Shown: in pieces, positions 1 to 17,214 of the stretch
Layout: each line of letters begins with the position of its first letter
Position numbering within the stretch: the stretch's first letter is position 1
Origin: an uncultured Myxococcales bacterium
GTDB taxonomy: Bacteria > Myxococcota_A > Polyangia > Palsa-1104 > JAEUJZ01
DNA: 28,964 bases
Direction: 5' to 3'
Assembly: GCA_964437195.1 (NCBI GenBank)
Contig: CAYTGC010000035.1
Coordinates: 1-28,964 of the forward strand
Made by a program: the position numbers and the translations under genes
The notes under the pieces: generated by a model
The model's database searches: none
Told to the model about the DNA's origin: nothing
What the model saw: only the letters and a program-made list of their open reading frames with translations

Positions 1-350
1 CGTACTTCGGTGACGGCGCTTTGCGGCAAGGCATGCTCAATGGCGGCATAGCGGACGTGCGGCAGCGCCTGTGTCTTTTGTCCGTCGAGCTGTGGCACCC
101 GCGTCGCTTCGTCCCAGGGATCGCTTGTCGGCGCAGACTCGGGCTTCTCACTTATCGCTGGAATCGGGGCTGGCGGGGTCGCTGGAATCGCGTCCGGCGG
201 AGGCGGCAGTGCGGTCAGACTCTCAATCGGTTCCGGGGACGCGAGAAGCAGGCCAAAGGCGCTGGCCGCGTGCTCGGCTTCGTAGAGCGTCGGCTCTTCC
301 AGCAGAGAACGCCGCGACGAGTCGGCTTTTTCTTCGCGCGGCCTGTGCAT
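1..350 (-). CDS. 5' portion (first ~116 codons) of a gene that runs off the left edge; Pro/Ala/Glu-rich low-complexity N-terminus (MHRPREEKADSSRRSLLEEPTLYEAEHAASAFGLLLASPEPIESLTALPPPPDAIPATPPAPIPAISEKPESAPTSDPWDEATRVPQLDGQKTQ...)
   Basis: Hand translation of the minus strand from the ATG at 350..348 stays open to position 3. The supplied track omits it because no stop lies inside the window. Third codon positions are GC-biased like neighbouring genes. The competing + ORF 21..473 is Arg-rich and looks like a wrong-frame artefact. Confidence 0.35.
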   Translation of the reverse strand, partial: MHRPREEKADSSRRSLLEEPTLYEAEHAASAFGLLLASPEPIESLTALPPPPDAIPATPPAPIPAISEKPESAPTSDPWDEATRVPQLDGQKTQALPHVRYAAIEHALPQSAVTEV

Positions 351-502
351 GGGACGGACTGTAGCGCAGCCCTCCCTGGGTGCTCGCAGAAAAACGGAGT
401 GAGCGTGGCACTCGGTGCTCGCGCGGCACACATCGGGACCATGCTGGGAAAGCGAAAAAACTTGGCTCTTTAGCGAGCCTAGGAGCCGTGATAGCCTAAC
501 CC

Positions 503-1543: not shown

Positions 1544-1563
1544 TCTCGCCGTCGATATCGGAT

Positions 1564-2589: not shown

Positions 2590-2710
2590 GCCTCTCCTTG
2601 TACTCTGCTGCGTTTGGTTGAACAAAGGGGGACCAAACAGACTCCTTATTAGCATACACCACAGGAGTCGCTTCGCCCTCCCAAACGACGGGCCATCGAT
2701 TCACAGAAGC

Positions 2711-5700
2711 TCAATGGGGGACGGTGCCCACCTGATGCAGCCTGCGGGCTCTGTCCCAAACCGCTTCGATACCCTGCGCAGAGATTCCTTGCAAAATCCA
2801 CGGTCCCCCAAGGGCTGGATCGGTGGTCAAGAATGTGCCTCGGCCAATCTGGCGCAGACCTTTGCTTTTTTCCAGGGGACGCTGGGACAGCGCAGAAAGC
2901 ACGCGGTCGCTATCCGGGGAGGCGTAGCTCTGGCCACTCTTTAGATCGATGGCGCTTGTCATATGGAGCCGCTGCCGTAGCGATGAATCGGGAAGTTGCG
3001 CGAGCCGCGCTAGCATCTTCGGATCGATGGACGGCACCACCAGTTGATCGGGACGAAGGTGCCGCAGCGGGTCCCAATCTGGGTCCGCATCGTCGGTGAA
3101 GTAGGGAATCCCATCCAGCGATCGTCCATTGTCGATGCTGTACACCCGAAATGGGGGGCCTTCCGAAACCAAAAAGTTGTCTGCGTAGTTGGCGTCCCCA
3201 TGTGCGATCAGGCACAAAAATGCCATGAGGTTTGAAACGCTACGCCGGTAATCGGGTTCGCTTGCGAAGCGCTGGGGGCTCCACAGACCCTCATGGAATT
3301 TTGTTGGAGTCTTTCCGTCCTCGACCCAAACGGTCAGCGCGCCCAGTACCAAGTGATCGTTTATCGTCGGAAATGTGGCCGGGATCTGCTCCCCAAGAAG
3401 CCGCGGAACACCCTTACAGCTTCGTTCGCACGGAACATTCCGATGCAGCGCACGAAGAACGACATCGGGGACCAGCTCACGCTGTGGATCACCAGCGGCT
3501 AAAAAGCGATCTATGTGACGCGCGGCCACTTCGCAGCGCGGCGCGTTGTTGCCATCGAAGCCTTCCTGGCTTTCGCTTCCCTCGACTCCCATCGGCTTCC
3601 ATTTGGCGGAAAACGTAATGTCCCTGCGTGAAAGCGTCAGCTTGTAGACCGCTGGATTGATCACCTCGACCGCAGCCAGCGCGAGATCATTGGCAAGGAG
3701 ATCTTCAGTGGAGACTCGACTCGATGCAGGTGGGATGGGATTCTGCGCGGAAGGCGTGAACAAGGGACGAGACAGGCGCGACAGAAACAGACCATCAAGT
3801 GGCAGCAGCTGCGCCTCTGCATCGACACGCTCCGAACTGACCAGATAGACGGGGCGACCAGCTTGAATCGCGGCATCTATTTCTTGTGGCGACTTCTGCG
3901 GGACATAGAAGCGCAGACTCAGACTCGTCAGGTGGTGGCGTGTGCGAAGCTCCGATGGGGGAATTCCGATGTACGGACGGACGATGGGCTTGCGTCGGGT
4001 ATAAAGCTGAAAATAGGAAGCGAGAAGTCTGTCATCGACCAGGATCTCTGCATCGGATTCCAGTGTCACAGAGAGCCACTTGGTAAGCTGACGGATGGGC
4101 TGTTCCTCTCTCTCTGCTGCTCCCGTGAACGTGCGGACAGACTCTGCCACTGCGATCGCACTGCGCTGACTTTGACCAATCAGGAATCCGAGCCACGCGA
4201 TGCTGATCGCGGCCACCGCTCGTGCGAATAGAGAGAAACGGGCAGGGCCGCAAAGACCCAGCGAGATGAGGAAAATCAAACCGAAGGAGGATGGACCCCA
4301 GGCTTCGGGATTCTCTGGCTGAAAAAAGAAAAAATGGACAAACAGGAGTCCCAACCAGAGCAGCAACCGACGACAGATCTGAGGCGCCAAGGAATGCGCA
4401 CGATGGGAAAGAAAAGCGAATCCAACCAGGCTGGCAAGCGCTTCACCAACTGGATGCGTGAGCGGAAAATCACCGACAAAGAACGTACGAACCCCGGTGT
4501 AGCAGTCGAGCAGGCGCTGTCCCAAAGATGTGGGCCACGACAGAAACTCTCCGGACAGATGATACTCAAAGAAGAAAGCGAACACTTGGCGCAGGCCCTT
4601 CGCTTGGCCGACAAATACAGCCAGGCCGATCAGCAGCGGCAAGACAAAGACGGTGGTAAGAAGCAGGATCGTTGCAATGTCTTGCGCGGAAGCCGAGTCC
4701 TTCCGCTGGGAACGGAGCGTGAATAGCAGATCGACACAGAGCCAGACAAACAGAAGTCCGCTTATCAGGTGGGCAAAGATCGCCAGTGAGAGCAGGACAG
4801 ACAGCAGTACTTGTCGACGCAGCAGCGTCCATCTGGGGTTGCGAAACAGTCCCAGGTCCCAGTGTTCCCGATGTTGGAGATACAGGACCTGAAACAGTGT
4901 GGCGAAAAAGAGAGCAACTTCCTTTTCCTCTCCTGAAAGTGTCAGTCGATAGCGTCCGCCAGCCAGCAGCATAAGCAGCACAGCGCAGACTGTGACCAAC
5001 AGTGCGTCGCCGGTATCTTTGCAGACCGCGCGAGCTGTCAGGCTGAGCAAACAGACAACGCCGCCCAAGAAAACCGACTCACGCACCACCACGGCAAGGA
5101 CTGGATCTTCCACGAAGAGCCGAAACGGTGCGGTCAGCGGAATGACGAGTGGATGCGCGAAGAACAGCCAGTCAGATGGCTCCACCGGCCGAACTTGGTT
5201 GAGTACGGATGCCGTCATAAGTGCATCCCAACCCGGCTCACCACCGTCGCGGAAGAGGATCTGAAAAGAGGTTGATAATATGCCTAATATAATCGACCAC
5301 CAGAGCCATCGTGAGGGTCGATGACCAGCCAATCGGGCAAGTCCCAGCAGCAGCGTAGTGCTCGGCAAGAGCAGTGGTGCAGCCAAGAGCAGAACAACAC
5401 TGGCTGACAAAAAACCAACCAGAAAGCCGTTGTTTTCGTGGAAGAACAGATGGGCTGGGCGTGGATGGTTGCGGCTACGGCTGGCGAGAAAACTTCCGCC
5501 AAGGACTCCGCACAAGAACGCGGAGACGAGCACTGCAACAAGGGGCCATGCGGAGAATGGGACCGAATGTGATGACAGCGCAGCGAGCCACAGGAAAACA
5601 GTCGCCAGGACGGCGGTCCAAGGTTCCGTGCTCCGTGCGGCATCGCTTCGCTGAAGGAGTGATCCGACAAACCCACCTACGAGCCAGCAGAGCAAAAGCA

Positions 5701-5848
5701 AAAACCACGTCGACGCACTGGCGCCAACACCACGATACGACAGGACTCCCAGCGTCACCTGAAGCTGTCCCAGCGCCATCCCGGTCAGGAATGCTTCGCC
5801 GAAACGATCCGAAGGGCGGTCGATTTTGTCGGCATGGGACATGGTCAT
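2711..5848 (-). CDS. Very large polytopic membrane protein (~1045 aa): ~15-17 predicted TM helices in the N-terminal ~590 aa plus a ~450-aa soluble C-terminal domain with a kinase-like catalytic-loop pattern (IAHGDANYADNF ... YSIDNG)
   Basis: Many long hydrophobic segments rich in W/F/L. The ATG at 5848 overlaps the TGA of the upstream gene (ATGA at 5845..5848), implying translational coupling. The track ORF extends to a GTG at 5878. The function assignment is inference from motifs only. Confidence 0.55.
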   Translation of the reverse strand: MTMSHADKIDRPSDRFGEAFLTGMALGQLQVTLGVLSYRGVGASASTWFLLLLCWLVGGFVGSLLQRSDAARSTEPWTAVLATVFLWLAALSSHSVPFSAWPLVAVLVSAFLCGVLGGSFLASRSRNHPRPAHLFFHENNGFLVGFLSASVVLLLAAPLLLPSTTLLLGLARLAGHRPSRWLWWSIILGILSTSFQILFRDGGEPGWDALMTASVLNQVRPVEPSDWLFFAHPLVIPLTAPFRLFVEDPVLAVVVRESVFLGGVVCLLSLTARAVCKDTGDALLVTVCAVLLMLLAGGRYRLTLSGEEKEVALFFATLFQVLYLQHREHWDLGLFRNPRWTLLRRQVLLSVLLSLAIFAHLISGLLFVWLCVDLLFTLRSQRKDSASAQDIATILLLTTVFVLPLLIGLAVFVGQAKGLRQVFAFFFEYHLSGEFLSWPTSLGQRLLDCYTGVRTFFVGDFPLTHPVGEALASLVGFAFLSHRAHSLAPQICRRLLLWLGLLFVHFFFFQPENPEAWGPSSFGLIFLISLGLCGPARFSLFARAVAAISIAWLGFLIGQSQRSAIAVAESVRTFTGAAEREEQPIRQLTKWLSVTLESDAEILVDDRLLASYFQLYTRRKPIVRPYIGIPPSELRTRHHLTSLSLRFYVPQKSPQEIDAAIQAGRPVYLVSSERVDAEAQLLPLDGLFLSRLSRPLFTPSAQNPIPPASSRVSTEDLLANDLALAAVEVINPAVYKLTLSRRDITFSAKWKPMGVEGSESQEGFDGNNAPRCEVAARHIDRFLAAGDPQRELVPDVVLRALHRNVPCERSCKGVPRLLGEQIPATFPTINDHLVLGALTVWVEDGKTPTKFHEGLWSPQRFASEPDYRRSVSNLMAFLCLIAHGDANYADNFLVSEGPPFRVYSIDNGRSLDGIPYFTDDADPDWDPLRHLRPDQLVVPSIDPKMLARLAQLPDSSLRQRLHMTSAIDLKSGQSYASPDSDRVLSALSQRPLEKSKGLRQIGRGTFLTTDPALGGPWILQGISAQGIEAVWDRARRLHQVGTVPH

Positions 5849-7335
5849 GGATCGGACATGACCTGCCGTGAAAGCCACAGGACACCGAAGAGGTTCTGTT
5901 CACTAAGCGGCTGCGCAGACAGTGTCACGAGTCGTACGGTCCGATCAGCGTAGACTTCGCCGCCTTCTGGATCGTGGGAACGCAAGGCGTGCTGCATCTG
6001 TGAAAGCGTAAACGGAAGGCTCTTCCCTGCATACAGGATCGCCAGTCCTGTCGAGTTTCCCTCAACCACCAGGAGGGAAGGGAAAGCCTGGGCTGCCGAG
6101 GCTGCAATCTGCTGACCCAGTGGATCGTGTAAGCTCGAACAGAGGCTCAGCGCTGCGACGCCACCCTCGCCAAGATGGCTTGCGATCTGCGCGTAGAAAC
6201 CCGGCGAATGCAGAAGCGCGAGCTGGGTCCGGTAGGGTGCCGGAACATCAAGCACGATCAGGTCATAGCGCTCGTGGCTCTGTGCGAGAGAGACGCGTGC
6301 ATCGGCAATCTCGACAGTGATGTCTTGCGCAGAGAGCTTGTGATGACTTGCGAACTGGCGAAACCCGATGTCGGCCACTGCGGCATCAAGCTCGATCACG
6401 CGGACGCGATAACCCAGCCGGTGAAGATGGGCAGCCGAGGAAAAACTGCCACTTCCGATCACCAGGGCAGACCCGTTGTGACGGGCAAGCAGCGCACCTG
6501 GGATCCGTGCCAGCAGCACATTGAAGGCATCCAAATCACCGGCCCGATAGAAGGGAACACCGTCGAGAAAAAGGATCTTCTCACCCTGCGAGGAGACAAC
6601 ATCCACGCGCTGATACGGTGAGTAGCGACTCTCTAGTAGCGTGGGTGTCGCGAGCTGATGAACGCGTTGATAGTACAGCTCGGATGCCTTGCGATCGAGT
6701 GTCTGTAGGTTCCCGGCCACAAGACACCCAGCCACTGCAAAGAGCAGTCCGTAGCGCACGCCGTACGACAACCCAAGGAGCAGTGCGGGCAGGAGCAAGT
6801 AGACTGTAAGGAGCGTCCTGTGCGACGGCACACTGGCGATGAGCAGGAGCATCAGGGCCGCACCGAGAAGCTCTCCAGCGTAGAGCCACGGAATCGAGCG
6901 AGGTGGTGATATATGAGGCAAAATAAATGAATAATATCCACAGAGCAGAGAGATTCCTGCAGTGATGACTGCGGCACTTGGTCCAAGCTGAGACGGGCCA
7001 AAAACAGAAACGATCGCGCGAATTCCGAACGGGAGCAGCCACTGGCAGAGGGCAGCCACACAAGACCAGGCAAACACGGTTCGGTCCGAGAGCCGAAAGC
7101 GCAGTGACAGAGCATATCCCAGGCTTGGTCCGAGCAGTGTGATCACGGTCGCGGCGATGAGAGACAGCTCGGTCACAAAAAACGTCGATCCAAGCTCACG
7201 CGAAGCGATGTACTGGCTGGCAAGCAGACTCGCCCCCGAAGCAGCCAACAGCAACAGGTGTCGAAGTGCTGGAACGGAAGGCGTCTCTGTCGGTCGATCG
7301 TCCTCTCGACTTTGTGCCACGCCAGAATCTACCAT
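5845..7335 (-). CDS. Membrane-anchored spermidine-synthase-like / class I SAM-dependent aminopropyl- or methyl-transferase-fold protein (N-terminal ~7 TM helices plus a C-terminal Rossmann-type domain)
   Basis: C-terminal half reads NGSALVIGSGSFSSAAHLHRLGYRVRVIELDAAV...YDLIVLDVP, typical of the SpeE/methyltransferase nucleotide-binding fold. The N-terminal half is hydrophobic. ATG at 7335, 9 nt after the stop of the cyclase gene. Confidence 0.5.
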   Translation of the reverse strand: MVDSGVAQSREDDRPTETPSVPALRHLLLLAASGASLLASQYIASRELGSTFFVTELSLIAATVITLLGPSLGYALSLRFRLSDRTVFAWSCVAALCQWLLPFGIRAIVSVFGPSQLGPSAAVITAGISLLCGYYSFILPHISPPRSIPWLYAGELLGAALMLLLIASVPSHRTLLTVYLLLPALLLGLSYGVRYGLLFAVAGCLVAGNLQTLDRKASELYYQRVHQLATPTLLESRYSPYQRVDVVSSQGEKILFLDGVPFYRAGDLDAFNVLLARIPGALLARHNGSALVIGSGSFSSAAHLHRLGYRVRVIELDAAVADIGFRQFASHHKLSAQDITVEIADARVSLAQSHERYDLIVLDVPAPYRTQLALLHSPGFYAQIASHLGEGGVAALSLCSSLHDPLGQQIAASAAQAFPSLLVVEGNSTGLAILYAGKSLPFTLSQMQHALRSHDPEGGEVYADRTVRLVTLSAQPLSEQNLFGVLWLSRQVMSDP

Positions 7336-7344
7336 GAAGGCATC

Positions 7345-8643
7345 CTACCCGAGCTTGTAAAGCTGAACGCTTTCTTCCCGGCCTTTGACCTGAACTGGGT
7401 CGAGCTTTTCGACATGGACGGATTCGCTCGGTAGTCGACTGACCACGGCCTCGGTCGCGAGAATCTGGGTGTTCAGGCCCTTGTTCAGACTTTCCACTCG
7501 GGCCGCTAGGTTGACGGCATCACCTATCACTGTGTATTCCCGCCGGAGCTGGGATCCGACGCTTCCTGTAACGACATCGCCGGCATGAAGTCCGATTCCG
7601 ATCCTCGTCTTGGGAATGAGCTGTGCGGCGCAAAGGGAATCAACTTTGGCGAGTAGTTCCAGCGCCGCGTGGACTGCGGACTGGCAGTGGTTTTCGTTTG
7701 CAATTGGTGCGCCAAAAATCGCGAGAAATCCGTCACCGAGGAACTTGTTGATGATGCCGCCGTGCTTGTCGATGATCTCAACCAGCGGACCGAACAGGGT
7801 GTTGAGGAAGCGGACGACTTCGCTCGGGGATTTCCCTTCCGAAAAGCGCGTAAAGTCACGGATGTCGAGAAACAGAATCGACACATTTCGTGTCTCTGTG
7901 ACCTGTCCCGCATGGGTTCCAAGGAGGCGTTCGGCAACCTGGGGTGAGACGTGTTGGCCGAACATTGCGACGGTGCGATCTCGTTCCAGCACGGCTTCAG
8001 CAGTCCGCATGAGCCGGGCGCGCAGATCGCGACTGACCAATGCGGCCCCCATTCCACAGACCACCAAAATGGAAGCGCGCAGGAACATCGGAACGGGTGA
8101 CGAAAAAATCGGATCGTGCTGTCTGGGCAGATGCGAAAAGGACCAAGAACCAAAGAGCAGATACTCCGCTGCACACAGGACTGCGACAAACAGCGAGTAG
8201 GGCATGCTCAGTCGCAAGATCGACAGCATGATAAGTCCCAGATAAATGAGAACAGGTGGGGCTGCGAGCGCAAACTCTGCCGAGGAAAAACGACCAATAA
8301 TCCACAGGAATCCGGTGATCCCTGTGACTTCAACAAAGGAGTTTGCGAGCAGGTAGACACTGGGAAGCGGCTTGTCGGCGTCAAGCTTGCGCTGGATTAC
8401 GAAGTACGAAAGCCAGCAGTACGCTGCGAAAATGCCAATGCCGATCCGAAGACGTGGGCCGACGAGGGAAAGCGGAGAGCTTGGGCTGCCGGTGATGCCA
8501 GGGTCGAGGAGGTTGAAGACCAACATCGCCAGAATGAATCCGAGCGTGAACACCACGGCCACGATGCGGGCGCGGGCTCGCTCGGTGGCCATGATCTCGC
8601 GGGCAAGCTGCTGGGCGAGCGCCCGCTCGTGACTCGGGTCCAT
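7345..8643 (-). CDS. Class III adenylate/guanylate cyclase with an N-terminal 6-TM membrane domain
   Basis: The C-terminal cyclase-homology domain is unmistakable: VSILFLDIRDFTRFSE...FLGDGFLAIFGAP...GIGLHAGDVVTGSVGS...YTVIGDAVNLAARVES. ATG at 8643. Confidence 0.85.
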   Translation of the reverse strand: MDPSHERALAQQLAREIMATERARARIVAVVFTLGFILAMLVFNLLDPGITGSPSSPLSLVGPRLRIGIGIFAAYCWLSYFVIQRKLDADKPLPSVYLLANSFVEVTGITGFLWIIGRFSSAEFALAAPPVLIYLGLIMLSILRLSMPYSLFVAVLCAAEYLLFGSWSFSHLPRQHDPIFSSPVPMFLRASILVVCGMGAALVSRDLRARLMRTAEAVLERDRTVAMFGQHVSPQVAERLLGTHAGQVTETRNVSILFLDIRDFTRFSEGKSPSEVVRFLNTLFGPLVEIIDKHGGIINKFLGDGFLAIFGAPIANENHCQSAVHAALELLAKVDSLCAAQLIPKTRIGIGLHAGDVVTGSVGSQLRREYTVIGDAVNLAARVESLNKGLNTQILATEAVVSRLPSESVHVEKLDPVQVKGREESVQLYKLG

Positions 8644-8694: not shown

Positions 8695-8952
8695 CTAGGC
8701 GGTAGGAGATTTTCCGTCGGAAGGTGGTGGTTCAGACTTGCCGTGTGCAGCCGGGGTTTCCGGGTGCGCGCTTCCCCCACCCAAAAGTGAGTAGAGGAAG
8801 ATGATCGCACCGAGTCCCCACAGCAGAAGACCAAGACCCGCGTAGACAAAGAAAGCGGTCGGGTGAGACCAGCGAAGTGTGAGTGCCTCTACGACCAGGC
8901 CGAGTAGAACGAGGCAGGCAGCAATCCGCGTGCGCAGATGTTCCTTGCTCAT
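8695..8952 (-). CDS. Small (85 aa) two-TM membrane protein, last gene of the cytochrome operon
   Basis: The ATG at 8952 overlaps the TGA stop of the NapC-like gene (ATGA at 8949..8952). Sequence MSKEHLRTRIAACLVLLGLVVEALTL...FFVYAGLGLLLWGLGAIIFLYSLLG has two hydrophobic helices. The track ORF extends to 8973. Confidence 0.5.
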   Translation of the reverse strand: MSKEHLRTRIAACLVLLGLVVEALTLRWSHPTAFFVYAGLGLLLWGLGAIIFLYSLLGGGSAHPETPAAHGKSEPPPSDGKSPTA

Positions 8953-9554
8953 TTGACGGCCTCCGGTTTCCACAGAGGAAGGCTATCGACTTCGCTGGTG
9001 ACGTGAACCGTGTCGTGACAGTCCTTGCTGATGCACGACAGCTCGTTGCGTCGCATTTTTTCCATGCGGCCCGGCTCGGCGCTGTGGGTCTCCCCTTTTA
9101 GATAGCGCCGGGCACCTTCGTGACAGTGCAGACACTCACGATTGTTGTAAGGCTCATACAGCGCAAGCTTGTCCGGGATCTTGCCAAAGTAGTTCACCAG
9201 TACGTGCTTTACGCCGCGCAGCTTCGCCTGAAAATCACCGTACATGGTGTACGTGGTGTGACAGCTAAAGCAAGCGCGCTCACGAGGAATCCTGCCGCCT
9301 TGAAAGTGGGAAGCTGCCAGGATCGTGGTGTCATCGACGAGCAGACTCCGTCCGTGTTTTCCCATCACATGGCACGACGTACAGAAGGTGGTCTGCTTCG
9401 AGTTCTCGACATGCCGATCTACACCCATCACACTGACGGTCACTGGCAAGACAAACAGACCAGTAAACGCCAGCGTTTTGCTCGTATGGGCTGGCCGAAA
9501 CAGGATCACCGCGGCCAGCAAGATGGCGATCCCAAACAGTGCCGCTAACATCAT
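8949..9554 (-). CDS. NapC/NirT/NrfH/CymA-family membrane-anchored tetraheme cytochrome c (quinol dehydrogenase)
   Basis: N-terminal TM anchor (MMLAALFGIAILLAAVILF), then CTSCH, CFSCH and CLHCH plus a fourth CISKDCH (CX4CH) motif. Size (~200 aa) and layout are typical of the family. GAGGGAAGG RBS upstream of the ATG at 9554. Confidence 0.8.
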   Translation of the reverse strand: MMLAALFGIAILLAAVILFRPAHTSKTLAFTGLFVLPVTVSVMGVDRHVENSKQTTFCTSCHVMGKHGRSLLVDDTTILAASHFQGGRIPRERACFSCHTTYTMYGDFQAKLRGVKHVLVNYFGKIPDKLALYEPYNNRECLHCHEGARRYLKGETHSAEPGRMEKMRRNELSCISKDCHDTVHVTSEVDSLPLWKPEAVK

Positions 9555-9587
9555 CCTTCCCTCACCCCGCCAGCGTTTAGGAATCGC

Positions 9588-9941
9588 CTACTTCTTGGCC
9601 AGCTTGCGGACGAACAACACCAGACCTTCGAGCTGATCGCCACTGATCTCGGGAGTGGCTGGCATCTTCACTTCCTTGCCATCCTTCGTTTCGGTCTTGC
9701 CCTTGTTGATCATTTCCTTCAGCTCGGCGTCCTTGAATCGTTCCTGAACTTTGGGATCGGTGAGATCACGCAGCGGACCACCAAACTTCTTTTTCGCCTG
9801 CTCGGTGTCTCCCTTGCCGTCTTCACCGTGGCACGAAGCGCACTTGGCCTTCCACGCCCGCTTCACGCGTGGATCATTTTCATCGGCTGAGGCCGACAAG
9901 GCAAATGACAGAAGGGATGCGATGATGAGCAGCTTGCGCAT
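9588..9941 (-). CDS. Class I monoheme cytochrome c, periplasmic (signal peptide MRKLLIIASLLSFALSASA)
   Basis: Single CASCH near the N-terminus and a downstream KMPA Met-ligand-type motif. ATG at 9941 is preceded by AAGGAGAG. The track ORF starts at an upstream GTG (9965). Confidence 0.75.
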   Translation of the reverse strand: MRKLLIIASLLSFALSASADENDPRVKRAWKAKCASCHGEDGKGDTEQAKKKFGGPLRDLTDPKVQERFKDAELKEMINKGKTETKDGKEVKMPATPEISGDQLEGLVLFVRKLAKK

Positions 9942-9990
9942 GAGAGACTCTCCTTGGGACCGCACTTGACGTTGGTCTGTGTAGTTTTGT

Positions 9991-11052
9991 CTAGAGCGTG
10001 TGGCAGTAGCGGCACATGCCGTTGCGTACGATCTCTTGACGGTCGTGCCGCTCCGTCCATTCAGGTGGATGCGGATTTCCGCCGAGCCCGCCGACTTTGT
10101 GGCAGTTCACACAGTTCGAGCGCGGTCCTTGATCGTGGCAGCTTGCACAGCTTGTGATGTTACGACGTGCCGCAAGTCCATGGAACTGCGGAGTGCTAGG
10201 CGTGTTAAACCCAGGCGGATGTGGGTTTCTCGGATTGTCACTCCTACCGCTGACTCCCTGCTGGTTGTGGCAGTTTTCACAGAAGCTCTGACCATGGCAG
10301 CGCAGACATGAAGTCGGATCGGCACGAGATTCCATGCTGTGCCTGCCGACGAAGTCACCGCGATGAATCAGATCGCTGTCTGCTCGCTCTGGGAACTTGA
10401 GCTCAATTGGCGCAAAGACCGTCTTGGCATGACAGTCCGCGCAGAACGTCTGCTCGTGACAGGTTGCACAGCTATCCGGCGTCGAGCGGGCAGGGCGCGC
10501 GTGACCCAGCACGAAGTTCCCTTGATGCGAGAACTGGGTGATCGGCTTCTGCGGATACCGCTTCAGATCTTTGTGACAGCTTCCGCAACTTCCCTGCTCA
10601 TATTCCTGCTTGTGGGTATGGCAGCCGAAACACGACTCCATCGTTGGTGCGACGGCAGGCTGTCCTTTTTCCGACAGCGTCTTGTGGCAGCGCGTGCAGT
10701 CTTCCTTGGTCTGCTCGATGTGCTTGGCGTGCGACAGCTTGAGGGTCGATGGCTGGCGGCGATAGGAAGTCGGACGCACTGGATCAGTGTGACAATATCC
10801 GCAGTTTCCGTTCTTCTTGTTGTCCTCGTGACACTCAAGGCACTTGGACTCTTTGGGGAAGAAGTCCCCTTTCATGTCCTGCGCGTCATAGATGGTTTCA
10901 TGACAGACGAGGCAGTCCACTTTGGCTTTGGTGTGAACGCTGTGCGGAACCTTGATCGCGTCGCCCCCACCGATCTTGGCCCAGAAAGTCGCGCAGGCGA
11001 CGGTAAATAAAACGCTGGCGAGAAGGAGCCAGCGGAGGCCACGGGCGCTCAT
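9991..11052 (-). CDS. Periplasmic multiheme cytochrome c with 13 CXXCH motifs in 353 aa
   Basis: CLVCH, CLECH, CGYCH, CTRCH, CFGCH, CGSCH, CATCH, CADCH, CLRCH, CENCH, CASCH, CVNCH and CRYCH with abundant extra His. N-terminal signal/anchor MSARGLRWLLLASVLFTVACA. Its ATG overlaps the stop of the porin gene (ATGA at 11049..11052). Confidence 0.85.
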   Translation of the reverse strand: MSARGLRWLLLASVLFTVACATFWAKIGGGDAIKVPHSVHTKAKVDCLVCHETIYDAQDMKGDFFPKESKCLECHEDNKKNGNCGYCHTDPVRPTSYRRQPSTLKLSHAKHIEQTKEDCTRCHKTLSEKGQPAVAPTMESCFGCHTHKQEYEQGSCGSCHKDLKRYPQKPITQFSHQGNFVLGHARPARSTPDSCATCHEQTFCADCHAKTVFAPIELKFPERADSDLIHRGDFVGRHSMESRADPTSCLRCHGQSFCENCHNQQGVSGRSDNPRNPHPPGFNTPSTPQFHGLAARRNITSCASCHDQGPRSNCVNCHKVGGLGGNPHPPEWTERHDRQEIVRNGMCRYCHTL

Positions 11053-12311
11053 TCATGCACCTCACGGAAGACTTGCGTTGCGTTATACGCGAGCTTCACA
11101 ACAAACTCCACTCGGCGTTCCACAAACGGAGTCACGTCAGCAAATCCGGTGGCGACGAGCTTGAAACCACGGCCAAGATCTCCGGCCACGGTTCCGGTTC
11201 CAGTGAAAGAGTAACTCTGTCCGTTTATCGCCTGATCAAGGAAGTAACTGTTGGCACCTAGCGTGACGAACCACGAGGGGGAGAGCTTGTGGGTGCTGTA
11301 AAGACGCGCCTGCACATAGCCGTTGTTTGGTAGCTTGAGGAGTCGCAGCTCGCCGTTGATTGTGGTGTGATCGCGCTGCCCAAGTGCGACGGTGGCCTTG
11401 ATTCCGCCGCGTGCGCCTGCGCCCTCCATGTTCACCACGGCACGAAGGTCGCCGTAGAAGCGCAGCCTGCGAATCGGCTTAAAGAAGACGTTTCCGCCCA
11501 CTTCATCACGCGTCTCTTGTGAGAAGACAGAGAACACAGAGTTTAGCGGCAGAAAGAGATCCGGCGCGGTTCGGCGATAGTCCGCACCGATCTGGAACAT
11601 CAGGTTGGGAATCCAGGTTGCAGCGACGTCGGCTTCGGCAACGCGCGCTTCAGGAATCGAATACAGGGTGTAGCCGGTGAGCGCGACTTGCTCATGTGGA
11701 ACGTAGCGAGCGTCGACGGCAAGATCCTGCCGGGCTGCGCGTCCTTCGCCCATCACTTGATTGAAGGACACGCCGACTTCGGTATCGACAGAGTGTCGAT
11801 AGAACATCCGACCACCAAAGACCACGTCACCGCGGCTGACCGAGAAACGCGGTGTGACTGGCACTCCACCATACCCAGATATTCCAAGTCCCTTGTAGAT
11901 CTGGATCGTGGCAGAACCGCCATCAAGCTGGGTGCTGCGGGCGGCTCCACCGAACACAAACTGGCGCCCGAGTCGAAGCTGGACGCGCCGTTTCCAGAAG
12001 CTACCGTCGAGATAGCCGAGATCGATGTCTCCCGACCAGTACTGATCGCGACCAATGTCGAGCTGCACCGAACCCCAGCCCGACATCACGATGTTGATGC
12101 TGTCAAAGTACGGTCGCTTGATCTGCGCCGTGACCCCTAACGACTGATAGACCGGAACAACGGTGTGGATCTGTCCATCCCGCGGATCTGCGCGTCCTGC
12201 CAACAGCGTCGATACGTTGAATTCAACGGAGTCTGCATGTGCAGATCCACTGGCAAACAGAAGGCCACACAGGATGGTCCGGCAGAGTCTTGGATGGCGT
12301 CTAATTTCCAT
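11049..12311 (-). CDS. Outer-membrane beta-barrel (porin-like) protein; candidate porin of a porin-cytochrome complex
   Basis: Signal peptide MEIRRHPRLCRTILCGLLFASGSAHA. The 420-aa body is Gly/Tyr/Ser/Thr-rich with alternating hydrophobic beta-strand-like patterns and aromatic residues near the C-terminus (KLAYNATQVF). It sits between the periplasmic and lipoprotein cytochromes. Its start overlaps the stop of the upstream cytochrome gene by 11 nt. Confidence 0.55.
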   Translation of the reverse strand: MEIRRHPRLCRTILCGLLFASGSAHADSVEFNVSTLLAGRADPRDGQIHTVVPVYQSLGVTAQIKRPYFDSINIVMSGWGSVQLDIGRDQYWSGDIDLGYLDGSFWKRRVQLRLGRQFVFGGAARSTQLDGGSATIQIYKGLGISGYGGVPVTPRFSVSRGDVVFGGRMFYRHSVDTEVGVSFNQVMGEGRAARQDLAVDARYVPHEQVALTGYTLYSIPEARVAEADVAATWIPNLMFQIGADYRRTAPDLFLPLNSVFSVFSQETRDEVGGNVFFKPIRRLRFYGDLRAVVNMEGAGARGGIKATVALGQRDHTTINGELRLLKLPNNGYVQARLYSTHKLSPSWFVTLGANSYFLDQAINGQSYSFTGTGTVAGDLGRGFKLVATGFADVTPFVERRVEFVVKLAYNATQVFREVHE

Positions 12312-13932
12312 CAGAGACTCCGTTAAGATGCGTCGTGGTCATCGCGCCCGCAGAGCCAGTAAATACAATCGTCCCGTTTGCATCCATGGTCTTTGCGTGA
12401 CACTTCACGCAGTCGACGAGACGCATGGTTGCAACGTGATTGACATCTTTGGGGGGAATGCCGTGGCACGACCCGCACGAGCCCTGATTGGGGGCGGTCC
12501 AGATCGGCGTGCGGTTGACCGTCGGATTGGTATCGCCAAGGAGCTTGCTTCCGCCACCGTGGCAGTACGTGTTTGTACACTTCGCGGTTCCGCTGTTCCA
12601 GGTTGGTGTCGCGCCTTCCAGCGTACTCAGCTTGGCGCCAAGTGAGGCCGGGAAGATGGCGACTCCTTGTCCGCCGACTTTGTGGAGGTTGGTTCCTGAT
12701 ACGAGTAGCTCGACGCCACGGTGGCACTCCGTGCAAGCGATCGGAGCGCTCATCTTGTGTGTGGCGCTGACGTGAGCCGTGTGCGCCCCCACAGACAAAA
12801 TCGTTGAGTCCGTCTGTCGGATTAGGTTCTGAAACGCTGTGCTTCCGGTGAAGCCGTGACAAGAGGAGCACTGTCCTTTTCCATCACCGGCGTCGCTCTT
12901 TCCATCGACGTGTAGTGTTCCCGGGATGAACTCTTTGGCTTCATTTACGGTTCCGTTGTGGCAGATCACGCATCGCGTGGATGTCGCAGCGTGGCTGGCT
13001 GGAGGGGCACCGTGACAGGTTCCGCACTTGATCTCGCTGGACGTGCCGGTCCACTTCGGTGTGGTGTTCATGGCATTCAGATCACCGAGCACCGCACCGT
13101 GACAGTAAACGTTCGAGCACTGCTTGGTGCTTGCATCGAGCAGTGGCGGACTCAGACGATACATCGCATAGGGAGTCGCACTGGCCAGACTGCCAAACGA
13201 GATGATCGGCGGTGTGGTTCGCAGCGTCTCATCGGCATTGAAGACATGCCCCGGATCAAGCCATGACACCCGCTTGGGGTGACACTCTGTGCAAGCCAGC
13301 GAGCGTCCCAGCGTCGCTCCTTTGATGTGCGCGCGGTGTGCATTGGGGAGCCGCGAGTGACAGGTGTCACAAGTGGTCACGCCTTGCGGGTGGCATGTTA
13401 GACAGGAAACCTCCGCTGCTCCGCCGCTGAGATCCTTGCCATGGCAGTCCGAACATGCACTGAGCTTGTAGTTGGCCTGCCGCAGCAGCGCCCCGTGAAA
13501 CTGTCCGTTCGGATCCTCGGGATTCAAGATGCCTGCCTGATGGTAGACCGTCCGGGCGTAGGACATGTTGCAGTCCACCACCCAGCTTCGCAGGCTTTCG
13601 CGAACAGAGTCCGTGATGTTTTTGTGTGCTGCCGAGGTCGTGTCACTCGCGATGATTTGGAGGAGCTGGGAGTTGCTGTCACCAGCGACGGCACGGACTG
13701 GTACTTCGCCGCCCCCTAAGACCGACAGATAGTTCGCGGTATCTAGACTTGCGGCAGGACTTGCCCCACTGTGACAGCTTCCACAGTTGTCTTTGAGAAG
13801 AGGCGCGATTTCGTCTTTCCAACTGATGCACTGCGTGCGGGTTCCTTGCGGGGTCCGCGCGCTGCCGCAGCCAGTACCAACGAGCAATGCCACTGCGAAA
13901 AGCAGCGACGGATGTCTCAGCATCCGACCCAT
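12301..13932 (-). CDS. Multiheme c-type cytochrome lipoprotein (11 CXXCH plus 2 CX4CH motifs), probable outer-membrane/extracellular
   Basis: ATG at 13932 is preceded by AAGGAG. Lipoprotein signal MGRMLRHPSLLFAVALLVGTGC. Motifs CGSCH, CSDCH, CLTCH, CDTCH, CTECH, CSNVYCH, CGTCH, CVICH, CSSCH, CTECH, CTNTYCH, CGSCH and CVKCH. The track ORF extends to an upstream start at 14043. Only 4 nt separate it from the stop of the upstream decaheme gene. Confidence 0.8.
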   Translation of the reverse strand: MGRMLRHPSLLFAVALLVGTGCGSARTPQGTRTQCISWKDEIAPLLKDNCGSCHSGASPAASLDTANYLSVLGGGEVPVRAVAGDSNSQLLQIIASDTTSAAHKNITDSVRESLRSWVVDCNMSYARTVYHQAGILNPEDPNGQFHGALLRQANYKLSACSDCHGKDLSGGAAEVSCLTCHPQGVTTCDTCHSRLPNAHRAHIKGATLGRSLACTECHPKRVSWLDPGHVFNADETLRTTPPIISFGSLASATPYAMYRLSPPLLDASTKQCSNVYCHGAVLGDLNAMNTTPKWTGTSSEIKCGTCHGAPPASHAATSTRCVICHNGTVNEAKEFIPGTLHVDGKSDAGDGKGQCSSCHGFTGSTAFQNLIRQTDSTILSVGAHTAHVSATHKMSAPIACTECHRGVELLVSGTNLHKVGGQGVAIFPASLGAKLSTLEGATPTWNSGTAKCTNTYCHGGGSKLLGDTNPTVNRTPIWTAPNQGSCGSCHGIPPKDVNHVATMRLVDCVKCHAKTMDANGTIVFTGSAGAMTTTHLNGVSDGN

Positions 13933-13936
13933 CGCC

Positions 13937-16393
13937 TTACTCCTTTTCGCGTGAGTAGGGGGGCTTGTACGGGCTGCTGATGTTGTGGGCTTTGCTGACA
14001 GCGAACTCGGCACCTTCTCCATGGCAAACCATGCAGGTTTCAACCGGCTTGCCCATCGGATCTGTCCAGGTGTTTAGCGCCGCGTGTCCTGCAGCAGCAG
14101 AGGTATCGTGGCAGCCCAGGCACGCCATGGTATTGGCCTGCAGATACGCATTGTTTTTGCACTTGCCGGACACGCAGGCTTGGCCAACTCCGCACGGCGC
14201 GGTCGCCGAGCAGGTTGCATTCGAGTCACCGTGGCACTTGGTGCAGTTGCGCACATCCTGTGGGAACAGAAACTCCGAAAAATCGTTCGTGCTGTTCGAG
14301 TTTCCGATGTAGACCAACGCGCCCGGGTTAATGAGTCCGCCTCGCTCTGCGTATCCGCCCAGGTGTCGCGCAAAGTGAGTCGAGTGAATCATCGACGCAA
14401 ACTGAATGGTCTGTCCGGGCGTCGGGTCCACCGCGACAACGCAGGTGTCGAGCTTTCCATCGACGGGATTTACGTCTTGGCAGGTCTCCCAGCCTGCGGC
14501 GTTTCCTCGACACTGCGTGCTTACCGTGCAGGCCAGACCACGGGCTCCCACCGTGCGATCCACGGCGCCAGTGGTGTGACAGATCGAGCAGCCTTCGGCA
14601 TCACGACGGCTGCCTCCGTGCGCTTGGGCAGTGACGTGACAGGCATTGCAGGACTCTCGCTTGATGACATGGCGGGGCTGAATCGGCTGTGAACCACCGA
14701 CGCGGAAGTCCACCAGTGCAGTGCCTACATCGCGAACGTTCGTTCCTTTGTAGCTTGTCGTCTCAACGACATAAAGCCAAGCAGAGTACGTTCCTGCCGG
14801 ATTCGGTCGTGGCGTAAGACCCGTTGTGTTCAGCGGCGGCAGTGCACTCGCTGGCCACGTCGTCGCTGGGTTAAACGTATAGAGGTTGGTCCCAGAATCA
14901 AACGTCAGCGTACCGGTGGTCTTCACGTTGGTCGACGGATAAATCATCTGTCGATCGTTTGTCGGGCCACCGATAAGGAGCGTTCCAGAGAGCGCGGTAT
15001 TGGTCTTCAAATCGACGATCGGATTCCCTGTCCCATCAAGAAGCTTGAAGGTCAGCTTGGGTAAGTCGCCGACCATCATGGCTCCCATCGGACCCGATCC
15101 ACCTGCCATCACAACCTCAGACAGAGAGATCTTGCGGACACGCGTACGCGTCAGGATCTCGTGTTTGTCTGGTATGGGCGAAATTCCAGATGAGTCCGCG
15201 CTGTGGCAGGTTGCGCACTGCGAGTCGTCCGTCTGCTTCGGATGCGTGGCGGTCTCGCACAGCAGCGTCACGGTATTGCACTTGGCCAGGCTGCTCCTCG
15301 CGGCGCAGTCGGTATCGGTGGCACATGCACCTGTATAGGTGCGGACCGGATTGAGCGTTCCGGTATCAAAGAACAGCGAGTCATGACAAGCACCACAGGC
15401 CTGGCGTGACGGCTTCTTCAGATTTCGATCATCTTTGTGACACTTGGCGCAGTCTTTTTCTGCGTCAGGCATCGATGGGAAACCGACGTTCTTATACAGA
15501 GCCAAGGATGCGTCGGCAGGGACTCCGTACTCTGGATGGGCAACGCCTGCACTTGCTTGGTGCTCGCCTCGGTGTGCCGCGTGAACCTTGCGCACCGTCG
15601 TGTTTACACTGTATCCGTCCTGGTTGTGACAGACCTTGCAGGTCGCGATGGGGAATTGATCGAGCGCCCAGTTGCCGAGCGGTGAGAATCCCGGCTCGAT
15701 GTGATGCATGTAGAGCTTGCCACTCGCTGCTCCCTTGTGACAGTCGCCGCAGCTGGATGACTGAGGATCACCGGATGCGTACGTCTCGACGGTGGCGGTT
15801 CCAATCTGGAAGTCTAGGAGTGGGAAGATTTGCTGCTGCTCGTCTGGGGTCTTGGCCCACAGTGCCACCGTGTAGGTTCCCGCGGCTTCGCTGCTGATCG
15901 CAGCCAGCTGATAGACCAGAGTCCCGTCCTTTTCGGTGCTAAGTCCCGCTGCGTTGGGATTTGCGTACGAAGGACTCTTCAGGTTGATGTAGTGGTGCTG
16001 GCGATCCTTGGCCGCTCGGTCGGTGACGGCATTGAGCAGCCGATTGGCACTCCTCGTGGTGAGTGCTCCACGCGGACCGACGAGATAGAGATTCGCCGTG
16101 CCCAATTCCGAAGGCAGGAGCAGTCTGCTGCAGGTAGACCCCAGCTTGATGGTGAGCTTCGGAGCTTCACCCGGCAGGTAGTACGAACCCTGAGCGGGCG
16201 GGCTGAGCGCAAGCTCTGCCTTGAATCCTGGGGCATTTGGATCACATGACACCGCGGTCATGTTCTCGTCAGGAATCAAGGAGCCGGAGGGACCACTTGG
16301 GCCGACTGGGCCTTCGCAAGTGGCGACGAGCAAGGCACACAGGGAGAGAAGCCTACTGATTGGCCGCATGGATATTAGTCTCTTAAGGATCAT
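13937..16393 (-). CDS. Decaheme c-type cytochrome lipoprotein (~818 aa) with an MtrC/OmcA-like beta-domain / pentaheme / beta-domain / pentaheme layout
   Basis: GGGAGA RBS 6 nt upstream of the ATG at 16393. Signal and lipobox MILKRLISMRPISRLLSLCALLVATC. Ten CXXCH motifs fall in two clusters of five (CGDCH, CKVCH, CAKCH, CGACH, CATCH / CNACH, CSICH, CTKCH, CLGCH, CMVCH), separated by heme-free regions of ~280 and ~160 aa. The track ORF extends upstream to 16633 without an RBS. Confidence 0.8.
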   Translation of the reverse strand: MILKRLISMRPISRLLSLCALLVATCEGPVGPSGPSGSLIPDENMTAVSCDPNAPGFKAELALSPPAQGSYYLPGEAPKLTIKLGSTCSRLLLPSELGTANLYLVGPRGALTTRSANRLLNAVTDRAAKDRQHHYINLKSPSYANPNAAGLSTEKDGTLVYQLAAISSEAAGTYTVALWAKTPDEQQQIFPLLDFQIGTATVETYASGDPQSSSCGDCHKGAASGKLYMHHIEPGFSPLGNWALDQFPIATCKVCHNQDGYSVNTTVRKVHAAHRGEHQASAGVAHPEYGVPADASLALYKNVGFPSMPDAEKDCAKCHKDDRNLKKPSRQACGACHDSLFFDTGTLNPVRTYTGACATDTDCAARSSLAKCNTVTLLCETATHPKQTDDSQCATCHSADSSGISPIPDKHEILTRTRVRKISLSEVVMAGGSGPMGAMMVGDLPKLTFKLLDGTGNPIVDLKTNTALSGTLLIGGPTNDRQMIYPSTNVKTTGTLTFDSGTNLYTFNPATTWPASALPPLNTTGLTPRPNPAGTYSAWLYVVETTSYKGTNVRDVGTALVDFRVGGSQPIQPRHVIKRESCNACHVTAQAHGGSRRDAEGCSICHTTGAVDRTVGARGLACTVSTQCRGNAAGWETCQDVNPVDGKLDTCVVAVDPTPGQTIQFASMIHSTHFARHLGGYAERGGLINPGALVYIGNSNSTNDFSEFLFPQDVRNCTKCHGDSNATCSATAPCGVGQACVSGKCKNNAYLQANTMACLGCHDTSAAAGHAALNTWTDPMGKPVETCMVCHGEGAEFAVSKAHNISSPYKPPYSREKE

Positions 16394-16475
16394 AATAATT
16401 CTCCCTGCCTCGAAATGGGAAGCGGATAGTCGATCTTCGGCCTTGAAAGTTGTACGCGGATTCAGCAGATGGCTG

Positions 16476-16518
16476 CTCGATCGAGTCTGCAAATCTGCCG
16501 TAAGGATCGACTCGATCC
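16476..16518. promoter_or_regulatory. Pair of operator-like palindromes in the divergent promoter region between the cytochrome operon and the EF-hand gene: CTCGATCGAG (16476..16485) and GGATCGAcTCGATCC (16504..16518)
   Basis: Both are perfect palindromes sharing a TCGATCGA/TCGA-N-TCGA core. GATCGAGTC (16479..16487) and GACTCGATC (16509..16517) also form a 9-bp inverted repeat. They lie ~70-120 bp upstream of the ATG at 16393. Confidence 0.3.
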
Positions 16519-16650
16519 ATCTACTCCCTCCTGGCCGTCGTGGGCTCCGTGAACATCGTGGCCGGGACGACATGTGCGAGAACGTCGTCGAGAAACAGCG
16601 TGATATGGACAGCTCCCGAACTTGAGCCGACAATGCTGTCGGGGGTGTTT

Positions 16651-17214
16651 ATGTCCAGCATTCTGTCACCGCTTCAGGTTCGGAAGTTCACCACGCTGTT
16701 TTCCCACTACGATGTGAACGGAGATGGCGTTCTGTCAGAGGCAGACTTTCGCGAGCAAGCGCGACGGATTCTCGACAGCTTCGGCTGGACCAACGATGAG
16801 AATCGTTCCCGCCACGTCTATGACAGTCGGGCCGAGCTGTTTTTGCGCTTGGCCTCTGGCGCAGACAAAGATCGCAACGGGTCGGTCTCGCTCGAAGAAT
16901 TTCTGCGCTACTTTGAACGGCAGATCTTGGCTCATCGGGCCGCAGGGGTTGCTTCTCCATGGCTTGTCCAGGCCTGTCGCGATGTGATCGAAATCATCGA
17001 TCACGATGGCTCTGGCTGCATCACGGAACTGGAGTACGCACGGCTCCTCAAGTCGATGGGATCAGACGCCGATCCGCATGAGACGTTTCTGAAGATTGAT
17101 CGTGACAGCGACGGAAAGTTGTCACTAAAGGAGCTGATCGCACTCTCGCTGGAGTTTATGATCAGCGAAGACCCGGAAGCTCCCGGGAACTTCTTTTTCT
17201 GCGGTAAGGTGTAA
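16651..17214 (+). CDS. EF-hand calcium-binding protein with four canonical 12-residue loops
   Basis: The four loops are DVNGDGVLSEAD, DKDRNGSVSLEE, DHDGSGCITELE and DRDSDGKLSLKE. ATG at 16651 follows a G-rich stretch. An alternative ATG lies at 16633, and the track start at 16540 is unlikely. The gene is divergent from the cytochrome operon. Confidence 0.8.
   Translation: MSSILSPLQVRKFTTLFSHYDVNGDGVLSEADFREQARRILDSFGWTNDENRSRHVYDSRAELFLRLASGADKDRNGSVSLEEFLRYFERQILAHRAAGVASPWLVQACRDVIEIIDHDGSGCITELEYARLLKSMGSDADPHETFLKIDRDSDGKLSLKELIALSLEFMISEDPEAPGNFFFCGKV

Follow-up and report, generated by a model that had tools for sequence, protein, structure and literature searches.

Several systems that carry electrons across the bacterial outer membrane by uniting a porin with multihaem cytochromes have been described, and those closest to the locus treated here are MtrCAB/CymA of Shewanella, OmbB–OmaB–OmcB and ExtABCD of Geobacter, MtoA–MtoB–MtoD/PmcA–CymA (ImoA) of Sideroxydans, the PCC3 and PCC4 clusters, and a two-gene pair in Anaeromyxobacter. 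The locus is a set of seven genes, named g1 to g7 in their order on the minus strand (8695-16393), in a contig of 28,964 bp (~58% G+C) from a metagenome-assembled genome (MAG) of an uncultured Polyangia bacterium (Myxococcota); the contig, which was covered complete, is the window of this study. The products are a divergent MtrC/OmcA-family decahaem (g1), a second multihaem lipoprotein (g2), a predicted outer-membrane β-barrel (g3), a 13-haem cytochrome (g4), a monohaem cytochrome c (g5), a putative NapC/NirT-family quinol dehydrogenase (g6) and a small membrane protein (g7), and together they probably make up a complete porin–cytochrome pathway for extracellular electron transfer. Judged from the relationships of its products, the cluster appears to be an evolutionary mosaic of known parts and no new kind of machine.

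Porin–cytochrome (Pcc) clusters have been defined by a porin and a periplasmic cytochrome similar to OmbB and OmaB (BLAST E<0.01), and they have 18-22 strands, 5-14 haems and an outer cytochrome whose haem motifs are often atypical (PMC4245776), with all of which the window cluster agrees. By similarity to Geobacter OmbB/OmaB, a two-gene Pcc group IV was found in Anaeromyxobacter (Shi et al. 2014, PMC4245776); in the same study Adeh_3392, the periplasmic cytochrome of this group, is reported to rise when Mn(IV) is being reduced. The window shares with the Anaeromyxobacter pair a homologous porin and cytochrome (~350 aa, lipoproteins), the porin-then-cytochrome order, the overlapping stop and start codons and the phylum Myxococcota, but g4 has 13 haems where its counterpart has 12, and g1, g2, g5 and g6/g7 are added to what in Anaeromyxobacter is two genes only. 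With the Geobacter conduits, compared here by description, the cluster has in common a small porin of 18-22 strands, a multihaem cytochrome on the periplasmic side and an outer lipoprotein cytochrome with CxxxxCH motifs (TIGR01904), and g4 appears to consist of Geobacter-type c7 modules, its best match in the Protein Data Bank (PDB) being GSU1996. The lipoprotein g2, however, is encoded ahead of the porin, the inner cytochrome, with its 13 haems, is itself a predicted lipoprotein, and an MtrC-family decahaem and a candidate quinol dehydrogenase are encoded in the cluster. Geobacter uses ImcH and CbcL, which are encoded elsewhere in the genome.

The Shewanella pathway resembles the cluster in the 5 + 5 decahaem superfamily of g1, in the NapC/NirT family that g6 would share with CymA and in the succession from quinol through periplasm and barrel to the surface; MtrB, with ~650-700 aa and 26 strands, differs from g3 (420 aa, ~22 strands), and MtrA differs from g4, which is apparently c7-type, carries 13 haems and falls outside the MtrA/DmsE family. 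In Sideroxydans a conduit, a class-I monohaem and a NapC/NirT tetrahaem are encoded together, as here (PMC6295460), but in the Mto system porin and decahaem are homologous to MtrAB, whereas the core of the window cluster is Pcc-type, which places it outside the Mto group, with the logic of the inner membrane and periplasm alone in common. The Mto system moreover has no surface cytochromes and serves electron uptake, g5 has no detectable MtoD match, and g6 departs from its Mto counterpart in its fourth motif (CxxxxCH) and its obligate small partner g7. PCC3 and PCC4 (He et al. 2017, PMC5566968) likewise bring together a porin, a redox protein of the inner membrane and multihaem cytochromes, which are periplasmic and, in PCC3, extracellular as well. 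The redox protein, however, is a five-helix putative dihaem b-type protein and not a NapC/NirT c-type one, the cytochromes of PCC3 carry low-complexity repeats and 21-60 haems, and the hosts of both are Proteobacteria.

The initial annotation of this DNA had put forward the self-contained layout as its novelty, and for this there is precedent: cymA or mtrH lies inside mtr/mto clusters of Rhodoferax, Ferrimonas, Sideroxydans and Azoarcus (PMC6295460), nearly every MtrCAB group has at least one member with an in-cluster CymA homologue (PMC8805035), and PCC3/PCC4 hold their own redox protein (PMC5566968). Its description of the conduit as a hybrid is borne out on other grounds, namely that a Pcc-type core is combined with a surface cytochrome from the MtrC family and with an inner-membrane module otherwise associated with MtrA-family decahaems. 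The computational checks that it had proposed all spoke for its interpretation.

Organization and conservation of the gene cluster

The seven co-directional open reading frames (ORFs) lie exactly where they had been placed, and each of the junctions claimed for them can be read in the sequence. The g3 and g4 genes share an ATGA (GAA-TGA / ATG), as do g6 and g7 (AAA-TGA / ATG), g2 and g3 overlap by 11 nt and g1 and g2 are 4 nt apart, an arrangement whose overlaps couple translation; gaps of 49 nt and 36 nt lie ahead of g5 and g6, respectively. Shine–Dalgarno-like sequences were found just 5' of g2 (AAGGAG) and 10 nt 5' of the g7 start (GGAGG). The spacing of g1-g7 suggests that they form one transcription unit, and the gene layout makes the intergenic region between g1 and a divergent EF-hand gene (16394-16650) the presumed site of the promoter. 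Consensus scans for promoters and terminators returned sites not in excess of shuffled sequence, a single weak sigma-70-like match (16421-16392, minus strand) was not above chance expectation, and Rfam and tRNA scans found no RNA genes in the window. The plus-strand ORFs that overlap the cluster were without support and are treated as GC-rich antisense artefacts.

Gene set and order are the same as in g1-g7 in a 94%-identical contig (locus L001). The arrangement is far beyond chance, because the order is kept in this contig, the g2–g3–g4 core recurs in ~40 independent genome loci and the 4-nt overlap between porin stop and g4 start is present in at least 23.

The porin and the cytochrome predicted to thread it

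The product of g3 (11049-12311, minus strand) has 420 aa and no haem motif. An AlphaFold2 model built with 63 homologues (mean pLDDT 88, pTM 0.76) consists of ~22 antiparallel strands, in agreement with the barrel of 20 or more strands that had been expected of it; most turns are of 2-7 residues on both sides, neither a plug nor constriction loops are seen, and the one longer conserved loop (residues 249-267) holds the family motif RRTAPDLFLP. On the strength of this model we are confident that g3 is an outer-membrane β-barrel of ~22 strands with short loops, which would act as a sheath for the haem wire, and g3 and g4 together correspond to the 18-22-strand porin next to a multihaem cytochrome gene by which Pcc clusters are recognized. 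In Pfam and NCBIfam no family matched g3, PF11854 included, its profile had no sequence match in the PDB, 6r2q_B included, and the single sequence gave just a chance match to vicilin. It was considered as an MtrB homologue and rejected, for want of a PF11854 or 6r2q_B match and in view of its length of 420 aa and ~22 strands. At 50% identity the porin family comprises 973 clusters (E<=1e-3), or 676 at E<=1e-10, and has no Pfam model.

The g4 gene (9991-11052, minus strand) encodes a 353-aa cytochrome with 13 CxxCH motifs, all of them invariant among 61 homologues, and with ~26 residues per haem it is denser than MtrA; the number lies within the 5-14 CxxCH of periplasm-side Pcc cytochromes. When its profile (the same 61 homologues) was compared with the PDB, the best matches were a hexahaem fragment of GSU1996 (1.1e-13) and ActA of alternative complex III (ACIII; 1.9e-9), followed by PpcA-type c7 cytochromes (~1e-5), with MtrA (6r2q_A) at just 0.006, which points to a protein built of c7-type modules. 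TIGR03508, the DmsE/MtrA family model, gave no hit to g4, although it detected the decahaems of two other loci used as positive controls (L070 and L073; 268 and 242 bits, cut-off 192); membership of the MtrA/DmsE family was rejected on this ground, together with the 13 haems and the E-value for MtrA. The initial annotation had described g4 as a 13-haem periplasmic cytochrome, of which the haem count stands but the free periplasmic location does not, since the lipobox Cys20 is invariant and the protein is probably anchored to a lipid, from where it is predicted to thread the barrel on the periplasmic side. A conserved lipoprotein Cys is found in all three multihaem families (g1, g2 and g4).

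The outer cytochromes

The g2 gene (12301-13932, minus strand) encodes a protein of 543 aa with 11 CxxCH and 2 CxxxxCH motifs behind the lipobox LVGTGC, as had been claimed for a second lipoprotein of 11-13 haems, and a lipobox is found in most of its homologues. It matches TIGR01904, the Geobacter CxxxxCH/CxxCH domain, with 76 bits (cut-off 27) and Pfam GSu_C4xC__C2xCH with 49 bits. In most of 44 loci the gene lies directly 5' of the porin with the 11-nt overlap, and g2, a predicted outer-membrane or surface partner of the barrel, corresponds to the lipoprotein outer cytochrome of Pcc clusters, which often has atypical CX3-15CH motifs.

The first gene, g1 (13937-16393, minus strand; 818 aa), encodes a decahaem lipoprotein that is the predicted terminal reductase at the cell surface. 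It matches Pfam PF22113 (MtrC-MtrF_II-IV) with 105.2 bits (cut-off 30) and, just under the cut-off of 209.3, NCBIfam TIGR03507 (OmcA/MtrC decahaem) with 191.9 bits; in the PDB it matches MtrF at 8.9e-12 as a single sequence and at 6.2e-19 as a profile of 15 orthologues, with weak matches to UndA (0.0035) and MtrC (0.006). Its CxxCH motifs are arranged 5 + 5 (residues 215-393 and 582-787) with the ~190-residue spacing of MtrC. PF22113 and the MtrF match confirm the placement of g1 in the MtrC/OmcA/MtrF superfamily, and by these matches, with TIGR03507 below its cut-off, it would be a divergent member of the MtrC/OmcA family. The motif counts of g1, g2, g4 and g5 all agree with the haem numbers first assigned to them.

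The lipobox of g1 in the window (VATC) is atypical, and in the homologues it is canonical, ...[AG]C-EGP, followed in many by a Gly-Pro-rich linker. In many homologues collagen-like Gly-X-Y repeats of 20-60 residues stand right behind the lipobox Cys (C-EGP), for example at L003:6268-8808, L012:3522-6170, L017:3260-5821 and L039:2921-5512, with a weak match to Pfam Collagen in L003; in the window the stretch is present in a short form only, CEGPVGPSGPSG. Such a stretch may be a flexible tether that raises the decahaem off the membrane. A further feature of g1 is the insertion of three clusters of invariant non-haem Cys residues in the pentahaem domains (residues 357-379, 622-651 and 728-745), namely C363/C372/C379 (with C357 nearly invariant), C622/C628/C638/C651 and C728/C734/C740/C745. 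These are probably disulfide knots, and they differ from the single CX8C disulfide of Shewanella MtrC/OmcA.

The periplasmic and inner-membrane module

The product of g5 (9588-9941, minus strand) has 117 aa when read from its ATG, the start of the mechanically called ORF being a GTG at 9965. It has one CxxCH and a signal peptide that ends ...SASA-DE, and it matches Pfam Cytochrom_C (37.8 bits) and Cytochrome_CBB3 (36.1 bits), in keeping with its annotation as a monohaem cytochrome c; in the PDB it comes closest to small cytochromes c of class I, with MtoD absent from the hits at E<=0.1. It is predicted to be a periplasmic shuttle. The small membrane protein g7 (8695-8952, minus strand; 85 aa, no haem motif) has two hydrophobic segments, as had been reported, which are joined by a conserved RWxHPxAF turn; it has no family match in Pfam or NCBIfam and is a predicted accessory subunit of g6, which it follows in all nine genome loci that have g6.

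The g6 gene (8949-9554, minus strand) encodes a 201-aa protein with an N-terminal membrane anchor and a PF03264 (Cytochrom_NNT) domain, matched with 38.3 bits (cut-off 24.1) over profile positions 8-167 of 174. The claim that it is a NapC/NirT/CymA-family tetrahaem quinol dehydrogenase holds for the family and not for four canonical CxxCH motifs, as there are three CxxCH and one CxxxxCH, conserved in all eight aligned homologues; g6 would be a tetrahaem protein if the atypical CxxxxCH binds haem. The conserved motifs are FCxSCHxM (the first, a CxxCHxM), ACFxCHTxYT, NRECLHCH and SCxxxxCHxxVH. With TIGR03153 (NrfH) the match has an E-value of 3e-12 and 46.7 bits, well below the cut-off of 134.2, and g6 thus appears to belong to a divergent NapC/NirT sub-family without being orthologous to any named enzyme. 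Ahead of the haem domain lie two hydrophobic segments in succession (residues 1-25 and 27-46), both conserved in homologues; NapC/NirT proteins typically have one N-terminal hydrophobic segment. The g6/g7 pair is at present annotated as a generic cytochrome and a hypothetical protein.

When metagenomes were scanned with the g6 profile, at least 431 relatives came to light, of which the best 80 loci were kept. Among these best 80, a g7 gene comes after g6 in 56 and a g5 gene before it in 52, many of the contigs not being long enough to hold both neighbours, and Pcc-type g3/g4 genes stand beside the module in just three (L049, L084 and L088). Twenty-three loci have a flank of 4 kb or more on one side; in 15 of these the module comes after a ~310-460-aa protein with 10 CxxCH and a haem-free protein of 670-870 aa, and in ~16 of the 23 it adjoins a porin–cytochrome-type gene pair of some kind. 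The two module-associated decahaems tested (those of L070 and L073, scored above) belong to the DmsE/MtrA family. The large haem-free neighbours (670-800 aa at L070:6221-8617, L073:6401-8521, L058:6196-8298 and L098:7001-9004) have no Pfam match, MtrB_PioB included, and may represent another unannotated porin family of Mto-like conduits. Gene neighbourhoods therefore suggest that g5–g6–g7 is a portable module, found beside two unrelated kinds of outer-membrane conduit, and this recurrence is the strongest comparative argument that it forms the quinone-pool end of such conduits. As the module elsewhere stands mostly beside MtrA-family decahaems, the cluster in the window would be a mosaic.

Homologous loci and the link to Anaeromyxobacter

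Homologous loci were collected from species-representative genomes with BLAST-based annotation, the organism labels being those of the MAG depositors. The 40 genome loci with the porin come nearly all from Myxococcales, Polyangia, Archangium, Anaeromyxobacteraceae, Bradymonadaceae and organisms labelled 'delta proteobacterium', and from fen and palsa peat, soils, groundwater and activated sludge. Their conserved core is a lipoprotein cytochrome with 10-11 CxxCH and 1-2 CxxxxCH, then the porin, then a g4 homologue that always has 12-13 CxxCH. An MtrC-like decahaem is usual; it stands upstream, where it is 40-93% identical to g1, or else downstream, in the form of one or two proteins longer than 1000 aa. 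A monohaem cytochrome is common. The NapC-like g6 and g7 occur in just nine of the ~40, co-directional and closely spaced in the window and in the eight others. Two loci without g6 have other candidates for the link to the quinone pool: a Rieske/cytochrome b/multihaem gene set is adjacent in L002 (2616-5500), and L004 (3228-7871) encodes a 761-aa Ni_hydr_CYTB–multihaem fusion (CbcL-like) and a 492-aa NNT-domain cytochrome, so that the inner-membrane modules may be interchangeable. In L041 (positions 1-6115), from an Anaeromyxobacteraceae MAG, two tandem pairs of porin and 12-haem cytochrome flank a g2-like cytochrome of 12+1 haems, which suggests a duplication of the conduit core.

A search from the Anaeromyxobacteraceae porin led to the cultured Anaeromyxobacter (A. 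oryzae, A. terrae and strains SG22 and SG64), in which the porin is followed solely by a lipoprotein cytochrome of 348-360 aa with 12 CxxCH, again with a stop/start overlap. g3 is 33% identical to the Anaeromyxobacter porin (443 aa) over its full length (E 2e-64), and g4 is 41.6% identical to the 12-CxxCH partner (E 4e-81). This pair fits Pcc group IV, to which it was matched by description (two genes, 12 haems, 338-344 aa) and not by locus tags.

Proposed pathway and alternative explanations

In the pathway that we propose, quinol would be oxidised at the inner membrane by g6 with its two-helix partner g7, and the soluble monohaem g5 would ferry the electrons across the periplasm. The lipid-anchored 13-haem g4, lying inside the plug-less g3 barrel, would carry them through the outer membrane, and outside they would pass to the lipoprotein cytochromes g2 (CxxxxCH, Geobacter-like) and g1, which would deliver them to acceptors that are insoluble or polymeric, for example Fe(III)/Mn(IV) oxides, humic matter or electrodes. 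For a monohaem protein that shuttles between a conduit and a NapC/NirT tetrahaem of the inner membrane, PmcA–ImoA–MtoA of Sideroxydans provides an experimental precedent (PMC13390432). The reduction of solids is favoured because a surface MtrC-type cytochrome is present, the clusters of iron oxidisers being typically without mtrC (PMC4245776). A number of points weigh on the other side. The function of all seven products is wholly inferred, and the self-contained layout is one sub-variant among the homologous loci. The link of g3 to the Pcc systems runs only through Anaeromyxobacter and the published description. The structure model of g4 is of moderate quality (pLDDT 75) and a Foldseek search of the PDB with it gave no usable match (ACIII ActA, E 0.045), which leaves the threading of the barrel a prediction, and g6 stays below every NCBIfam equivalog cut-off, reaching the level of neither NrfH, NapC nor TorC, with weak matches to NrfH in the PDB (E 0.13-0.57). 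Finally, the order in which the module is found in metagenomes (decahaem, porin, monohaem, NapC-like) is that of the Mto iron-oxidation genes, which weakens the case for outward flow.

It is this last point that leads to the principal alternative, unlikely in our judgement, in which the same hardware runs inward: electrons taken from extracellular Fe(II) or from reduced minerals or humics would reach a terminal oxidase through g4 and g5, or be driven uphill through g6 into the quinone pool in the manner of Sideroxydans Mto. In soil metagenomes the module mostly comes after a decahaem of the MtrA family and a large protein without haem, an order that matches mtoA–mtoB–mtoD–cymA (PMC4412085; PMC13390432); g5 is a class-I monohaem with a cbb3-type domain, a kind that usually feeds oxidases; L002 has its neighbouring Rieske/cytochrome b complex; and CbcL/MtoC-type and CymA-type proteins have been found in reducers and oxidisers alike (PMC6295460). 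The window, however, encodes two large predicted surface lipoprotein cytochromes, one of them of the MtrC/OmcA family, of the sort typical of solid reducers, mtrC being usually missing in oxidiser clusters, as cited above, and contains no genes for carbon fixation or oxidases, and the nearest cultured relatives of the core pair, Anaeromyxobacter, reduce Fe(III)/Mn(IV), with a periplasmic partner that responds to Mn(IV).

The respiration of a soluble or periplasmic substrate (nitrite, sulfite, selenite/tellurite or a DMSO-like compound), with the multihaem proteins as periplasmic reductases and the barrel for substrate entry or product export, is improbable. NapC/NirT proteins do commonly serve periplasmic reductases, the best NCBIfam match of g6 is to NrfH, and some Geobacter Ext clusters are tied to selenite/tellurite reduction, the ExtN/ExtO models of NCBIfam giving weak hits in the scan of the decahaem loci; but the NrfH score of g6 is about a third of its cut-off, no NrfA/Cytochrom_C552 hit, CxxCK, molybdopterin, sirohaem or Fe-S protein was found in the cluster, the barrel, without plug or constriction loops, is translationally coupled to a multihaem cytochrome in every locus, and g1 falls in a family of surface cytochromes. 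An Nrf-type operon, which the initial annotation had named as the homology that could overturn its view, was rejected: none of the seven products is NrfA-like or has a CxxCK, and PF02335 (Cytochrom_C552) gave no hit. Least probable of all is that the genes lie side by side without forming a single machine, with g5–g6–g7 as a general quinol:cytochrome c module and the conduit fed by other inner-membrane enzymes. The module is found without g1-g4 in most metagenome loci, most homologous porin loci are without g6/g7, and g5 and g6 are set off by the 49-nt and 36-nt gaps and not by overlaps, yet the module adjoins a porin–cytochrome-type pair in most of the long-flank loci counted above and, wherever the two occur together in the genome loci, it points the same way as the cluster and lies close to it. 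A complete outward pathway encoded by g1-g7 is the preferred explanation.

Neighbouring genes

Divergent from g1, a multi-EF-hand calcium-binding protein is encoded at 16540-17214 (plus strand) and is conserved in L001; its true start is probably near 16651, because the L001 homologue is called as 187 aa. Beyond it, a 978-aa ORF (17240-20176, minus strand) has Major Vault Protein domains (MVP_shoulder with 68 bits, Vault_3 and Vault_4 more weakly), and a 982-aa homologue occupies the same position in L001, so a bacterial vault-protein homologue with eukaryote-type domains stands beside the cytochrome cluster. On the other side, 51 nt past g7, lies a gene for a membrane-anchored adenylate/guanylate cyclase (7345-8643, minus strand), followed by a membrane spermidine-synthase-like protein (5845-7335, minus strand) and a 1055-aa protein with no Pfam match (2711-5878, minus strand), the last two likewise co-directional with the cluster. 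These three genes 3' of g7 could extend the operon; their conservation was found in the close relative L001 only. Farther away, a 700-aa ORF (24527-26629, plus strand) has a sub-threshold match to a TonB-dependent-receptor barrel (23.9 bits, cut-off 27).

Implications for the Myxococcota

Literature searches that combined Myxococcota or Polyangia with porin–cytochrome, multihaem and MtrC returned no description of this cluster. A 2026 preprint on peat reports analogous clusters in Acidobacteriota and Verrucomicrobiota only, and Baker et al. (2022) do not mention Myxococcota (PMC8805035). Four features were not found in the searchable literature and are apparently undescribed: the expansion of the Anaeromyxobacter-type pair in Polyangia/Myxococcales, the occurrence of an MtrC-family decahaem together with a conduit that is not of the MtrAB type, a predicted barrel-threading cytochrome that is itself a lipoprotein, and the g6/g7 sub-family with its conserved CX4CH fourth motif and two-helix partner.

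A broader proposal, on which we are evenly divided, is that the Myxococcota own a large unannotated conduit lineage, consisting of a 22-strand barrel without a Pfam family and three multihaem partners that are all lipoproteins, the one threading the barrel among them, to which the Polyangia have added an MtrC-family decahaem and a module of monohaem, CX4CH NapC-like and obligate two-transmembrane-helix proteins otherwise found on MtrA-type conduits. If true, this would be direct evidence that parts can be exchanged in nature between the 'independently evolved' Mtr and Pcc systems, and it would mean that widespread Polyangia of soil, peat and sludge respire extracellular acceptors. A functional cluster would be a natural combination of Mtr-type, Pcc-type and Mto-like components, useful for the design of synthetic conduits and for the annotation of metagenomes. 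The Polyangia are mostly regarded as aerobic predators and polymer degraders; if the pathway is functional, their uncultured members in soil, peat, groundwater and activated sludge would have to be counted among the organisms capable of respiring minerals, humic matter or electrodes.

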